The position numbers and the translations under genes were made by a program. This document shows positions 3,001 through 10,102 of a stretch of DNA of 64,000 bases, one piece after another; positions within the stretch are counted from its first letter, which is position 1; the number at the start of each line of letters is the position of its first letter. A model generated the notes under the pieces. The model saw nothing but the letters and a program-made list of their open reading frames with translations. It was not told the origin of the DNA and made no database searches. This stretch comes from Christensenellaceae bacterium (lineage in GTDB: Bacteria > Bacillota > Clostridia > Christensenellales > Borkfalkiaceae): NCBI GenBank assembly GCA_948658045.1, contig CAPMFN010000007.1:16865-80864 (forward strand), read 5' to 3'.

Positions 3001-4811
3001 TCGTCGGCAAAGAGTATGACGAAAAAGGTCGCGTGAAAAAAGTTATTGATAATTATTCAGACGTTAATGTAGATTATACATATAATTATTACGGAAATAT
3101 TGTTTCAATAGAAAAAACCAAAAATAATGTGATGCACTTAACTGAAAATTATCGTTATAATGAATACGGCGAAGTCTCTGAAAAACACATTTTCGGTGCG
3201 GTTAATCACGCCTATACTTTCGGGTACAAATCGGACGCGGCGCGCACACTTGAATATGTTCGTTACGATAATAATAAATTCGTACATTTAACTGACGTAA
3301 ACGGCAGAAATACGGGTAGGGAGATTGCTTTACCTATGGGAGGCAAAATTGCTGGTGAATATATTTCATATCGTAAGGTGGGCGACCACGCAACGAATAT
3401 GCCGTCCGTAATCTGGTACGCAAGCGGCGAGGATATCAAAGACAACATAAAGTATAAGTACGACAAAAGCGGCAACATCTGCGAAATAACTGAAAACGGA
3501 CATATTGTTGCAAAGTATGCCTACGACGGGTTAAACCGTCTTGTCCGCGAAGACAATAAGCCGCTGAATAAAACCGTGCTTTACAGCTATGATAATTGCG
3601 GCAATATAACAGAGCGTTGCGAATACGCGTACACGAGGAAAAGCGGCGAAGAGCTTACCGAACTTGACTGCACGCATTTTGCATACGAATACGACGGCGA
3701 CAGGCTTGTAAGCTACAACGGAGAAAAGTGCGAGTATAATAATAACGGTTGCCCTTATACATATCGAAACAAATCATTAGAGTGGCGTTTCGGCACACGT
3801 GCAGCGTATTTTGACGGAATATCATACGAACACGACGGCTTCGGCAAAAGAATAAAAAAGAACAATATAGAGTTTGTTTATGACAGCGACGGCAGACTTA
3901 TAAAACAAAGTAACGGGCTTGAATTTATCTACGACGATAAACAGGTAATAGCTTTAGAAAAAGCACAAATTCGTTACTTCTACCGTAGAGACGTACAGGG
4001 CAATATTATAGCTTTACTTGACGAAAACGGCGCAGTTGTGGTAAGATATATCTACGACGCATGGGGCAACCACGCCGTGGTTGACGTAAATGGAAACGAT
4101 GTTGAAAGCGGAATAGGAGTATTAAATCCGTTCAGATATCGCGGCTACTATTACGACGCAGAAACAGGCTTGTACTATTTGCAAACCCGTTATTACGACC
4201 CCGAAACAGGCAGATTTATTTCTCAGGACAGCATAGAATACGCCGACCCCGAAGCCGTAAACGGACTGAACCTCTACGCATACTGCGGCAATAATCCCGT
4301 AATGAACGTAGACCCTAACGGCAATAGTTTCCTTAGAAAAGTAGGCAGTTGGTTCAAAAATGCAGGCAATACTATCAAAAATTTCTTTGTACATGAAGTA
4401 TATGAAGGCGCAATAAAACCTGCAACTGATTGGATTGTTGACGTTGCGACTCCTGCGGTTAGTAATTTCTTTACTAGTACGGTTCCTGATTTCTTTGTAA
4501 ATACTATTTATAACGGCGGACTAAAGCCTGCGTGGAATGCAGTATCTAATTTCTTCGTTAATACATTCTGGAATGATTGGATTGTAGATAAAGTGTGGAA
4601 TAACGGATTAGTTGTTGCTTGGGATTGGATTTCTGATATTGACAACTTGCTTTGGTTACTTGGTGCTATTGCAACAGTGGTAGGTGCTGCTATTACGATA
4701 GTTGGCGCAGTTATTACTTTACCGGTATGGGCGACAGTTTTAGGGGTTGTAGCTTCAGTCGTTGGTGTAGGTGTGCTAATTTGGCAATCAATAAGATTTT
4801 TTGGGGGTTAA
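1..4811 (+). CDS. RHS/YD-repeat polymorphic toxin, 5'-partial (frame open to window edge), with hydrophobic C-terminal toxin domain
   Basis: There is no in-frame stop between position 3 and the TTG at 45, so the gene continues upstream. Many YD/RHS repeats are present (YDDKGKSMSFEYEDDKL, YVYNGKQLTTVRY, YDALDRLIKK, YDGLNRLVRED). The RHS core end YYDPETGRFISQDSIEYADPEAVNGLNLYAYCGNNPVMNVDPNG (PxxxxDPxG) lies at ~4190-4320. It is followed by a ~160-aa Trp/Phe-rich repeat region (NFFV... x3) and two C-terminal TM helices. Confidence 0.9.
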   Translation, partial: DKTKLELFIEKQSALQNNGAAVQTAKEAEPTALSAATAVATKGLSNANQIIVSNEEIIKCASVYSAEDVSDTYEGMLKVDWYSPGSGEYWAEINLNVDKLHLDSKINSVKFVLISKDFAVGKFNFNNTLYEAMPNNEYSFDITNLVAGKKSVNLFFYPYYNEGSFIEFYTSGVNAPKIILNSVENWYELNKTPNLKDFNLGDKAKGYVDLNDGTFYTQFAPFNSSEFTLPLNISHIYKKGEEWSKCGQNWRLNLNRMLKVASNDNDRTTLFAYTDELGNVYNFEEKYYCIDNGQKIFVSKDSIEIDLNGNLTSVGRTVYKHQICNGMTFVSEINDFIKSELIEQRSERQINLEETIKQYKNTLSEYVLVNVNTGVIIDTNRSVLKDGYEHFMFYLENYSNITIMPESSAVQLKSLISSKSSLNSQISAATDANHKAQLRNQLENQIEPQIHYITWQATRNVSHVKEMFETYFNKLEELDFVQLNTPVNYLKDTNGLISGFNKHGNLVCLCNAYGGYVAVEYNKLDQISSIYDDKGKSMSFEYEDDKLASITDCRGRKTNYVYNGKQLTTVRYADGSNISFTYSGEDISTVTDSNGNKSTITYANNKLSRIQTLSHMVKIAKDDVTRGASYTKKIADVTFGYTSGGVNINYGEGKSESYTFTSGKNIQTHSQADEIQTKTVTYSYDYSQGKKITEVSQTDVGGEPAVTTIKIYDALDRLIKKEIDWRNISDSVQKRIEYFYFYDNHDNLICEKCCEFFKKDNNTSSSNTSLKNYSYNAQGSLILTESFVMGEELTSGKNYEERVYDENGNVTKTVKWNSLDSSSKFYSESVISESGLVTAEKDETGEAVSEYEYLDGTNVVKSVKQTNGITVAYGRDPGNFTVTSVTQSTADGESSTNDIIYECDLPVEVKSENTVIDYEYDFKGRKTKVTVNGKVQSTTTYEDFEYNQDSESAVYGSSNTTLYVGADETINFAQSKTGRLNEDTGKMRIKEVTEVNGQTVVGKEYDEKGRVKKVIDNYSDVNVDYTYNYYGNIVSIEKTKNNVMHLTENYRYNEYGEVSEKHIFGAVNHAYTFGYKSDAARTLEYVRYDNNKFVHLTDVNGRNTGREIALPMGGKIAGEYISYRKVGDHATNMPSVIWYASGEDIKDNIKYKYDKSGNICEITENGHIVAKYAYDGLNRLVREDNKPLNKTVLYSYDNCGNITERCEYAYTRKSGEELTELDCTHFAYEYDGDRLVSYNGEKCEYNNNGCPYTYRNKSLEWRFGTRAAYFDGISYEHDGFGKRIKKNNIEFVYDSDGRLIKQSNGLEFIYDDKQVIALEKAQIRYFYRRDVQGNIIALLDENGAVVVRYIYDAWGNHAVVDVNGNDVESGIGVLNPFRYRGYYYDAETGLYYLQTRYYDPETGRFISQDSIEYADPEAVNGLNLYAYCGNNPVMNVDPNGNSFLRKVGSWFKNAGNTIKNFFVHEVYEGAIKPATDWIVDVATPAVSNFFTSTVPDFFVNTIYNGGLKPAWNAVSNFFVNTFWNDWIVDKVWNNGLVVAWDWISDIDNLLWLLGAIATVVGAAITIVGAVITLPVWATVLGVVASVVGVGVLIWQSIRFFGG
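3396..3610. repeat. 215-bp exact repeat, partner 6360-6574
   Basis: Base-by-base visual comparison of the main rhs gene with orphan module 2, at a constant offset of 2964. Confidence 0.85.
4029..4213. repeat. 185-bp exact repeat, partner 6993-7177
   Basis: Visual comparison at the same offset of 2964. The flanks are similar but carry scattered substitutions. Confidence 0.85.
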
Positions 4812-4812
4812 A

Positions 4813-5046
4813 TTGAAAAAAATATTTTTTATTATACTGATGACACTTTTATTAATCTTTAGCATAATATTGTTATGTGTTTCTCAGTTTATGGATATAA
4901 CTTTAGGGTTTAGAATTTTTATAATAGTTTATCAAATCGCGTTTTATTTATTTATTATTACTGTTTGCTTTATACAATTATTACAAAAAGTAAAAAATAA
5001 AAAATCTAAAAAAGATAGAAATAATGAACCCACGGATATAGAATAA
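4813..5046 (+). CDS. small multi-TM protein, candidate cognate immunity protein of the main RHS toxin
   Basis: It begins 2 nt after the rhs stop (TAA 4809-4811). GGGGG at 4803-4807 could serve as RBS for the TTG at 4813; the track start at 4801 is also possible. The product is hydrophobic helices plus a KNKKSKKD tail and the ORF is very AT-rich. Its position is typical of an immunity gene. Confidence 0.5.
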   Translation: MKKIFFIILMTLLLIFSIILLCVSQFMDITLGFRIFIIVYQIAFYLFIITVCFIQLLQKVKNKKSKKDRNNEPTDIE

Positions 5047-5128
5047 TTAAATATAGTTTAACAAAAGAGCATATAATACTTTTGAAGAAATTGGAGACAA
5101 AATTTTATATTTTGTTCTGTTAATAAAG

Positions 5129-5162
5129 AAACAAGGCGGTATAAACCGTCTTGTTTTTCTTT
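5129..5162 (+). terminator. intrinsic terminator closing the main rhs/immunity unit
   Basis: An 11-bp stem AAACAAGGCGG / CCGTCTTGTTT (one G-U pair) with loop TATAAA is followed by a T-run. Confidence 0.6.
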
Positions 5163-5164
5163 AA

Positions 5165-9426: not shown

Positions 9427-9431
9427 CAAGG

Positions 9432-9461
9432 AAAAAGGTAGTTGCAAAACTACCTTTTTTT
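9432..9461 (+). terminator. intrinsic terminator of module 3
   Basis: AAAAA-GGTAGTT-GCAA-AACTACC-TTTTTTT. Confidence 0.7.
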
Positions 9462-9466
9462 CATAA

Positions 9467-9495
9467 TTGACGCACAACTTAAAATATGGTAAAAT
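9467..9495 (+). promoter_or_regulatory. sigma-A-like promoter motif at 5' edge of orphan module 4
   Basis: TTGACG (9467-9472), a 17-nt spacer, then TAAAAT (9490-9495), with TGg upstream of the -10. Confidence 0.4.
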
Positions 9496-10102
9496 AATTT
9501 ACGATCCCGAAACAGGTAGATTTATTTCTCAGGACAGCATAGACTACGCAAGAAATAATACCGTAAATGGATTAAATTTGTATTGTTATTGCTTGAATAA
9601 TCCTATAAAATATGTAGATTTTAGCGGCTGTATTCCAACAACCAATTATTATGATAAGAAGTCATCCACGCTGAATCTTTTCGGGTTTCATCATAAATTT
9701 TGGGGAAGGTTCATTGTTACTGCAACCGAAACACTTGAACAAAGCGAAGAACCCGGCATATTTTATTCATACCAGGATACTAATATAGGATTTATAAGTA
9801 TGTATACTTTCGGGGGAGGGATAAACCTATGGGGATGGTTTGGAATTGATTTTAGCTACAATTCAGAGAATAACATAAGTCTAGGTATTAATATTACGCC
9901 TTATCTTCATATTAATGCAAGCATTGGGTTAGATGGTATTTCGTTGGGATTAGGTATAGTAGTTAATAACATGTCATATGATTTGACCATTGGTTTAGGA
10001 TTAGGTCCTCTTATATTTATTGGTGGGATTGCTTTAATAATAGGTTCTGGCGGTCAAGCATTAAGTAATGTTTGGGATTGGTTTATAGCATTATTTAGTT
10101 AG
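9467..10102 (+). CDS. orphan RHS-tip + distinct toxin domain with Gly-rich hydrophobic C-terminus (module 4)
   Basis: YDPETGRFISQDSIDYARNNTVNGLNLYCYCLNNPIKYVDFSG is a diverged tip. It is followed by an aromatic/Gly-rich region (GGGINLWGWFGIDFSY) and LGLGPLIFIGGIALIIGSGG. The TTG start has no SD. Confidence 0.65.
   Translation: MTHNLKYGKIIYDPETGRFISQDSIDYARNNTVNGLNLYCYCLNNPIKYVDFSGCIPTTNYYDKKSSTLNLFGFHHKFWGRFIVTATETLEQSEEPGIFYSYQDTNIGFISMYTFGGGINLWGWFGIDFSYNSENNISLGINITPYLHINASIGLDGISLGLGIVVNNMSYDLTIGLGLGPLIFIGGIALIIGSGGQALSNVWDWFIALFS

Follow-up and report, generated by a model that had tools for sequence, protein, structure and literature searches.

An RHS toxin gene with orphan tip/immunity cassettes in a Christensenellaceae bacterium, and the hydrophobic leader of the toxin tips in its lineage

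The rhs locus and its orphan cassettes

The stretch analysed here, 64,000 nucleotides of contig CAPMFN010000007.1 from a Christensenellaceae bacterium of the gut (hereafter the window), begins within an rhs polymorphic-toxin gene, of which it contains the 3' end; four orphan tip/immunity cassettes, all complete, and a fifth, truncated, come next. We deal with the tips, i.e. the variable C-terminal parts that follow the RHS core, with the small downstream genes that are their immunity candidates, and with the hydrophobic leader by which most tips of this lineage begin. Every sequence feature tested for membership in the RHS polymorphic toxins was found: the repeats, the core domain and its motif, a tip with its downstream gene, and the orphan modules. 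The layout is as follows.

3 to 4811, plus strand: main rhs open reading frame (ORF), its 5' end cut by the window start
3..4322, plus strand: RHS/YD-repeat core of the main rhs, with the C-terminal motif NPVMNVDPNG
5165-5881, plus strand: orphan module m1
6363-7880, plus strand: long orphan module m2, in which about 930 nt of core are duplicated at 96% identity
8307-8969, plus strand: orphan module m3
9467-10102, plus strand: orphan module m4
10695 to about 11129, plus strand: orphan module m5, a truncated copy of m3 that abuts the tRNA gene
11158..11234, minus strand: tRNA-Arg(ACG), where the array ends

In the public assembly copy of the contig (L007, 18 mismatches in 15 kb against the window) the main gene is complete (L007:4794-9647): its true ATG lies 43 nt upstream of the window and its product counts 1617 aa. 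The YD/RHS repeats are recognised by PF05593 (E=6.8e-21, six stretches) and TIGR01643 (E=4.5e-6), and the RHS-associated core domain TIGR03696 (E=7.5e-24) covers residues 1337-1426 of the window ORF. The alignment with the solved Rhs cores (Tse5, RhsA, Tse15 and TcC) also runs to residue 1426, the G of NPVMNVDPNG; because both stop there, the main tip is placed at 4323-4808. An initial annotation, made from the letters alone, had set this start at 4318, within two codons of ours; it also closed the range at 10102, which excludes m5 although m5 is mentioned in it. The core is closed, directly ahead of the variable tip (window 4322), by a motif of the PxxxxDPxG type, which suggests that the tip would be released by autoproteolysis at DPxG inside the shell. 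No signal peptide was found in the main rhs, and its N-terminal 400 aa gave no LXG-type match.

In every complete module the small downstream ORF, provided with a ribosome-binding site (RBS), follows its tip after 0-15 nt or overlaps it. The core stubs of the orphan modules are 61-96% identical to the main rhs. Between 4501 and 11000 the G+C content falls to 25-36% in the tip/immunity parts, while the segments of rhs core have 40-45%; this fits cassettes of foreign or fast-evolving origin.

The orphans m1, m3, m4 and m5 are headed by the following elements.

5127-5158 and 5165-5193, plus strand: terminator-like hairpin, then promoter-like TTGACG-N17-TGnTAAAAT, at the 5' edge of m1
5198..5326, plus strand: rhs-core stub (YDPETGRF...NPVMNVDPTG) heading m1, a likely recombination substrate
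8252-8320, plus strand: hairpin and promoter-like region (promoter-like site 8291-8320), with an rhs-core stub to 8453, heading m3
9431-9495, plus strand: hairpin and promoter-like region (promoter-like site 9467-9495), with an rhs-core stub to 9628, heading m4
10643-10670 and 10679-10708, plus strand: hairpin, then promoter-like site, followed by an rhs stub, heading m5

Each short orphan thus presents a GC-rich hairpin with a T-run, then TTGACG-N17/18-TGnTA(A/C)AAT with an extended -10; the homology to the rhs core begins a few bases past this -10 element and extends over about 130-160 nt. Such an orphan looks like a self-contained unit made of a terminator, a sigma-A-type promoter, a stretch of core homology, a tip and an immunity gene. 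A RBS stands ahead of each immunity gene and none ahead of any in-frame start of a tip, which suggests that the cassette promoters drive the immunity genes. Translation of the orphan tips alone, from the conserved Met of NPVM, was considered and ruled out since no RBS precedes it.

The arrays are conserved in L007-L011. A further strain, L012, is arranged differently (L012:1-5813, compared with window 3390-8734 and 10679-12500; its contig stops before the full-length gene): there a long orphan of 472 aa carries the main tip, with an i1-like gene ahead of it (90.6% identity), and a deletion with an m3/m5 junction has taken out m3-m4. This arrangement is consistent with the switching or displacement of tips, or with their duplication, by recombination.

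Tips and immunity candidates of the window

The tips and the immunity candidates (i0 for the main tip, i1 to i4 for m1 to m4) are listed in order.

4323..4808, plus strand: main tip, 162 aa; aromatic repeats from 4323 to about 4655; hydrophobic hairpin of two helices at 4656-4784
4813..5046, plus strand: i0, 77 aa; two transmembrane (TM)-like segments; RBS GGGGG, TTG start
5327..5878, plus strand: m1 tip, 184 aa; TM helix, Gly/Ala/Ser-rich hydrophobic helices, amphipathic tail
5882..6217, plus strand: i1, 111 aa; two TM-like segments and a short C-terminal soluble part; RBS GGGGG
6354..7286, plus strand: RHS-core part of m2, a 96%-identical duplicate of main-gene 3390-4274; PF05593 E=1.9e-14
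7287..7646, plus strand: N-module of the m2 tip, about 120 aa; TM helix WLKWVLGILIIVVAVGL, glycine zipper GGGLAGAILGGAVAGAIGGAIAGFG, QGISKGFENIDWKQVG, second zipper
7647..7877, plus strand: tail of the m2 tip, about 77-95 aa, amphipathic; swapped for unrelated tails in relatives
7884..8192, plus strand: i2, 102 aa; soluble, no TM-like segment
8454..8966, plus strand: m3 tip, 171 aa; hydrophobic throughout; invariant AGANAAEGESF loop and GxxxGxxxG zipper
8959..9426, plus strand: i3, 155 aa; two TM-like segments and a C-terminal soluble domain; overlaps the m3 stop codon
9629..10099, plus strand: m4 tip, 157 aa; predicted nine-strand beta meander, then two hydrophobic helices (AlphaFold2, AF2)
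10117..10638, plus strand: i4, 173 aa; N-terminal TM, a domain of about 100 aa, C-terminal TM
10842 to about 11129, plus strand: m5 tip, a 3'-truncated copy of m3; no immunity gene

TM-like segments, defined on the Kyte-Doolittle scale with a 19-aa window and a threshold of 1.6, are present in all tips, i.e. main, m1, m2, m3, m4 and the truncated m5. The grand average of hydropathy (GRAVY) of the window tips ranges from +0.36 to +0.99, with 8.6-18.8% Gly and 9-13% charged residues; over the last 80 residues it amounts to 1.21 for main, 0.87 for m4, 0.42 for m3, 0.28 for m2 and 0.12 for m1. The strict GxxxGxxxG motif is restricted to m2 (five, overlapping) and m3/m5 (two), with none in main, m1 and m4. 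Compared with composition-matched shuffles, GxxxG is clearly enriched only in m2 (11 against 4.7, p=0.002); m5 (p=0.03) and m3 (p=0.09) are borderline, and m1 (p=0.36), main and m4 show no excess. The five tips have no detectable similarity to each other; homology among them was considered and discarded since no pairwise E-value is below 0.2.

Searched against Pfam and NCBIfam, all window tips and immunity candidates gave no match at E<=1 beyond sub-threshold ones of chance level, and the sequence search of the PDB with each tip, and with a profile of m4, returned nothing significant (at E<=10, chance-level matches only). In particular, the glycine-zipper models PF13488, PF13441, PF13436 and PF05433 gave none at E<=1 on the window tips, while some relatives of these tips show sub-threshold matches to Pfam glycine-zipper families. 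Nor did Pfam, NCBIfam or the PDB reveal in the window tips any catalytic toxin domain or fold (TNT/ART NADases, HNH/AHH nucleases, deaminases, peptidases).

These data bear on several statements of the initial annotation. The peptides that it quoted all occur in the frames it gave, and its description of all tips as hydrophobic agrees with the TM-like segments of each. Its label of glycine zipper is loose and, in the strict sense, covers m2 and m3/m5 but not main, m1 or m4; for the main tip, which it saw as three NFFV/W-rich repeats followed by two TM helices, the hairpin is retained and the repeats become four [ND]FF[VT] motifs, at residues 20, 48, 56 and 76. It had seen no enzymatic motif in any tip, as we do, the predicted model of m4 being also without fold match. 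Lastly, it held the immunity candidates to be mostly membrane proteins: this is so for i0, i1, i3 and i4, with two TM-like segments each, but not for the soluble i2.

The main tip has 11 relatives among 5.8 billion proteins, unnamed and all short orphan-like ORFs. Their alignment indicates that the number of NFF repeats varies, that the block FFVNTFWNDWIVDKVWN is kept and that the C-terminus is always the hydrophobic hairpin. The start of its immunity candidate i0 is probably at 4813, which gives a protein of 77 aa and not 81; a 77-aa gene is called at this position in L008. End-to-end relatives of m1 number at least six, in tips from other Clostridia metagenome-assembled genomes (MAGs), with 27-30% identity over about 190-200 aa; no close relative came out of a pattern scan of species-representative genomes, the protein database not having been searched with m1. 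For m3, 13 relatives show conservation over the entire tip, AGANAAEGESF being invariant, and seven further full-length relatives occur in other genomes; m5 is identical to m3 over about 450 nt and then diverges. The alignments of the relatives of main, m1 and m3 cover nearly the whole tip.

The m4 tip belongs to a broader family: 92 representative clusters contain the domain, in all cases at the C-terminal end or close to it, and RHS repeats were present in the ten long proteins tested out of ten. Its AF2 model, from an alignment of 52 sequences, reaches a mean pLDDT (predicted local distance difference test) of 94.8 and a pTM (predicted template modelling score) of 0.80. Foldseek found no fold match for it in the PDB and BFVD (best E 0.06-0.08, TM<=0.3); the beta-barrel and meander matches of these searches were dismissed as chance-level. 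The m4 family thus has a confidently predicted fold which, as modelled, matches no solved structure. A distant RHS protein of the m4 type (P0144, in L019), 30% identical to m4, is followed by a protein with the topology of i4 (TM, about 110 aa, TM), 26% identical to i4 (pairwise E=4.6e-5).

From these features main, m1, m3/m5 and m4 are most likely membrane-acting, as judged from their sequences: they are hydrophobic to the C-terminus, and a small predicted membrane protein lies downstream.

The case of m2 is different. Its tip (window 7287-7877 as a whole) shares the first 120 residues or so, the N-module, with 36 relatives, whose consensus reads TM helix, zipper GGGLxGAIVGGAVAGAIGGAI, QGISNGFxNIDWxQVG, second zipper. 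Past this module the relatives carry at least six unrelated tails (nine by our own reading of the family alignment), and neither the m2 tail nor the swapped ones have a match in Pfam or the PDB. Where the tail is of the window type, in L014, a homologue of i2 lies downstream (65% identity); behind the tail “YRYYD...QYFV”, in L013 and L016, it is a soluble protein of another family, the two copies sharing 45% identity, and behind the tail “LYRAV...” a third soluble protein (L017). As the downstream soluble protein varies with the tail while the N-module is shared, m2 looks like a composite, a common TM/zipper module to which an exchangeable tail is joined, and the zipper seems to serve delivery and not to be the payload itself.

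With 0-36 database relatives, main, m1, m2 and m3 are rare and unannotated families.

A hydrophobic leader across the lineage

A survey with the last 95 core residues as the query retrieved 79 related loci, from Christensenella-, Borkfalkiaceae-, Gallimonas- and Coproplasma-type MAGs and other Clostridia MAGs, and from a few bins labelled Bacilli, Endomicrobia or Fibrobacter. The complete tips of these loci number 113 and group into about 68 clusters by sequence. A TM-like segment begins within 30 residues of DPxG in 105 of the 113 tips, and is present somewhere in 111. Such a start is also the rule for the tips whose last 80 residues are hydrophilic (42 of 42).

The clearest of these is the tip L024:262-831, in which a TNT NAD-glycohydrolase occupies residues 104-186 (E=2.4e-18, 66.8 bits for a cut-off of 27). 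The enzyme sits behind MPRWLKWLLGGIALIGAVVL..., a segment resembling the m2 module, and a soluble ORF of 148 aa lies downstream; the N-module of m2 aligns with this tip over about 125 residues (31% identity, E=4.6e-7). In L043:2792-3247 an AHH-nuclease-like region follows the TM start, with an E-value of 5.2e-4 just under the cut-off. Weak matches behind similar leaders or zippers concern Ntox24 (E=0.021), Ntox37 (E=0.44) and, in three tips, DUF4160. Seven further tips combine a TM start with a domain of about 150 aa that has no Pfam match and contains the motif HE[FYWR]GH:

L071:2792-3535
L083:2792-3496
L027:2792-3421
L030:1686-2333
L074:2792-3469
L033:2792-3451
L087:830-1360

The motif is HExxH-like, so that this group might possibly be zinc peptidases; two of the downstream ORFs inspected for these tips contain TM segments. 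The tail of the tip L094:497-1072 contains NGHHRVAALRQLGY, with no Pfam match at E<=0.1; we take this, as an unconfirmed lead only, to resemble a ParB/sulfiredoxin-type nuclease motif.

The nature of the tail is correlated with that of the downstream ORF. When tails are classed by the GRAVY of their last 80 residues, which is the second metric tried, the 101 tip/downstream-ORF pairs tend to have soluble ORFs behind hydrophilic tails and TM ORFs behind hydrophobic ones (27/11 versus 9/54; odds ratio 14.7, p=1.8e-8). Tips of the hydrophobic class represent about 64% of the lineage. All five tips of the window belong to it, which would occur by chance with a probability of 0.64^5 = 0.11; with such a base rate five of five is unremarkable, and constitutes no evidence of a specialisation of the locus.

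The architecture, the conservation of the families, the co-variation of tail and immunity candidate and the statistics of the lineage are observed here; from them we favour the following reading, to which we would give a probability of roughly 60%. The leading TM helix after DPxG, usually accompanied by Gly/Ala-rich helices, would be a lineage-wide membrane-insertion module that, on leaving the RHS shell, puts the tip into the cytoplasmic membrane of the target. For about two thirds of the tips, including main, m1, m3/m5 and m4, the hydrophobic remainder would form channels or otherwise disrupt the membrane, where the small membrane immunity candidates may neutralise it. For the other third the module would help a hydrophilic domain across the membrane, such as the TNT NADase or the AHH-like nuclease, with a soluble immunity protein. 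Between these classes m2, with its shared TM/zipper module and exchangeable amphipathic tail, would be countered by a soluble candidate specific for the tail. The shell could shield the producer from its hydrophobic tip, as it does for Tse5 (PMC10684867). The promoters of the cassettes might keep the immunity genes expressed, and the core homology might allow a spare tip to recombine onto the full-length gene.

Several known systems resemble parts of this picture. In function the closest are Tse5 (RhsP1) of Pseudomonas aeruginosa, with its immunity protein Tsi5, and the LXG toxins of Firmicutes. For Tse5, as here, an Rhs shell holds a hydrophobic C-terminal fragment and the immunity protein is in the membrane, like i0, i1, i3 and i4 and unlike i2. 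This fragment inserts in the target membrane and depolarises it, while the shell shields the producer (PMC9637101, PMC10684867, PMC12744356). However Tse5 is delivered by the type VI secretion system of a Gram-negative bacterium, whereas the present gene is from Clostridia, follows a holin-like gene and, over the part seen, shows no N-terminus of the PAAR/VgrG type. The structures of Tse5 in the PDB (8cp6, 9i9y) matched the main rhs by the core only, with no similarity of any tip to the C-terminal fragment of Tse5. Among Firmicutes, the LXG toxins TelE, EsxX and TspA of the type VIIb secretion system depolarise membranes through C-terminal (G/A/S)xxxGxxxG helices, and their immunity proteins are either membrane-bound (TsaI, ExiCD) or soluble (ExiAB, TipE) (PMC12744356). 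The zipper motifs of m2 and m3/m5 are alike, but here the carrier is an RHS shell and not an LXG domain.

The m2 family and its TNT-bearing relative rather recall the bipartite CdiA-CT (C-terminal toxin region of CdiA) and Tde1, where an N-terminal part is conserved, the toxin is exchangeable and immunity is specific for the C-terminal part (PMC10240207, PMC11630599); Tde1 depends on its glycine zipper for crossing the membrane of the target (PMC10240207). The entry domains of CdiA, however, are soluble and use inner-membrane receptor proteins, whereas the N-module described here is itself TM and Gly-rich. The CdiA-CT ionophores of the EC93 type and Tox-WTIP are, like main/i0, m1/i1 and m3/i3, small hydrophobic tips with a two-TM immunity protein (PMC11630599, PMC3482391); they differ by their delivery, which is by the type V secretion system for the former and by the Photorhabdus virulence cassette (PVC) or type II secretion system for the latter, and the signatures RxxR and Wx[ST]IP of Tox-WTIP (PMC3482391) are absent from the hairpin of the main tip.

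RHS-borne membrane toxins are thus already known with Tse5. In the comprehensive survey of 2012 just one family of pore-forming tips is listed, and a TM leader of this type is not (PMC3482391); in the literature searched, of which the coverage is incomplete, we found no description of such a leader. What is new concerns the unannotated tip families, the unmatched predicted fold of m4 and a hydrophobic leader that spans the lineage and stands ahead of enzymes too.

A number of observations weigh against the insertion-module reading. All TM calls derive from Kyte-Doolittle windows and not from a dedicated TM predictor or from experiment, and similarity between Gly/Ala-rich hydrophobic segments is prone to compositional artefacts. 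Main and m4 have no N-terminal TM segment: their hydrophobic hairpin is C-terminal, so that they are not simply leader-only tips, and the idea of a leading module does not extend to all five. Among the 113 tips only one enzyme match is strong (TNT) and one is near the threshold (AHH), the hydrophilic tails being mostly unannotated. The first metric tried for the tails, their length after the last segment with KD>=1.6 (KD, Kyte-Doolittle value), was unlinked to the type of immunity candidate (p=0.53); we dropped it because many Gly-rich hydrophobic stretches fall below 1.6. As for the composite nature of m2, its tail is not hydrophilic (GRAVY +0.28); the AF2 model of the commonest swapped tail of the m2 type, from an alignment of five sequences, is unusable (pLDDT 44.9); and genuine zipper toxins may also be countered by soluble immunity proteins, as is EsxX by ExiAB (PMC12744356).

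The initial annotation had drawn from the hydrophobic tips that the locus specialises in membrane-disrupting payloads: all five tips, the zipper of m2 included, would be pore-forming or depolarising toxins for which the locus was selected. The hydrophobic last 80 residues of the five tips speak in favour of this, as do the membrane immunity candidates behind four of them, and the soluble i2 is no exclusion, given EsxX/ExiAB (PMC12744356); Tse5 offers moreover the example of an Rhs protein with a pore-former (PMC9637101). But the base rate of about 64% in the lineage makes five of five an ordinary draw (p~0.11), and the m2 module is shared with other tails, a similar one precedes the TNT NADase, and the immunity candidate tracks the tail. 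We therefore consider this specialisation unlikely, and its premise, that a hydrophobic or zipper tip denotes a membrane-disrupting payload, is not supported by the 105 tips of 113 with a TM-like start, since all 42 hydrophilic-tailed ones and the TNT and AHH-like tips are among them. What survives of the membrane-targeting tips is main, m1, m3/m5 and m4; for m2 the zipper looks like a delivery module. The proposal that the payloads are kept shielded in the RHS shell gains a direct precedent in Tse5 (PMC10684867; PMC12744356), which also qualifies the otherwise fair premise that most characterised Rhs tips are enzymes, this pore-former being already characterised.

The hydrophobic segments could also serve the producer, as an export or anchoring signal or for packing in the shell, the toxic activity then being that of an unrecognised enzyme or binder elsewhere in the tip. 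An RHS protein without signal peptide just downstream of a holin-like gene evokes an unconventional export, the TM start is near-universal whatever the tail, and no toxin domain is recognisable in any window tip. Against this, main, m3 and m4 leave little or no non-hydrophobic sequence for another activity; the membrane immunity candidates co-vary with hydrophobic tails, which fits a site of action in the membrane; and the i4-type domain between two TM helices is consistent with a neutralisation at the membrane surface. This explanation appears to us improbable, more so than a membrane-specialised locus. Still further down we place the view that the orphan modules are decaying remnants of recombination of which the immunity genes alone still matter: the truncated m5 without immunity gene, the orphan tips devoid of a start codon with an RBS, and the short ORFs that make up most of the database relatives would be explained, but m1-m4 each have an unbroken frame that begins in the core homology and ends at the stop codon, different strains keep the array, the main tip in orphan position in L012 implies that tips move on and off the full-length gene, and the m1, m3 and m4 families are conserved across genera. 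We regard it as very improbable.

The insertion-module reading can be extended, more tentatively and with odds that we would put clearly below even. The leader might be a self-sufficient translocator, taking soluble enzymes across the membrane without injection machine or receptor; candidate cargoes would be the TNT NADase, the AHH-like nuclease and the tails with the HExxH motif. The hydrophobic tips would then be pore-forming derivatives, and m4 a new membrane-toxin fold made of a beta-sheet and a hairpin. The way in which protein toxins get through the membrane of Gram-positive targets is recognised as an open question (review PMC13460014). The present lineage is a natural experiment on it, with a single kind of leader before dozens of unrelated tails, an NADase among them, and matching soluble or membrane immunity candidates. 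In this lineage a hydrophobic tip is by itself no sign of a membrane-disrupting payload, and several unannotated toxin/immunity families are added.

Neighbouring genes

Upstream of the rhs gene, L007:4452-4778 encodes a protein of 108 aa with one N-terminal TM helix, ending 15 nt before the rhs start (L007:4794). It resembles phage holins: phrog_6918 matches with E=6.5e-6, and PF09682 (Holin_LLH), with E=2.8e-4, stays below its cut-off. This neighbour, with an rhs gene that lacks a signal peptide, hints at a holin-dependent release of the RHS protein. Such a release has a precedent in TcdE for the large clostridial toxins. Still further 5', L007:1-4113 encodes a surface protein of more than 1400 aa with a C-terminal TM anchor and repeated Ig-like/MBG-type modules, of which the Pfam matches are weak only.

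On the tRNA side, a strain without rhs array (L002:11327-20858, flank = window 11351-12208) carries a different island at the same position, with genes for DUF2828/DUF7788, ThiF, a reverse transcriptase (RVT_1), RNase H and AAA_33/HD domains; the island is variable, and possibly a defence island. Farther in the window, at 22206-28553, an ORF of 2115 aa has no Pfam match at E<=0.1; the same housekeeping neighbours are kept around it in several assemblies.

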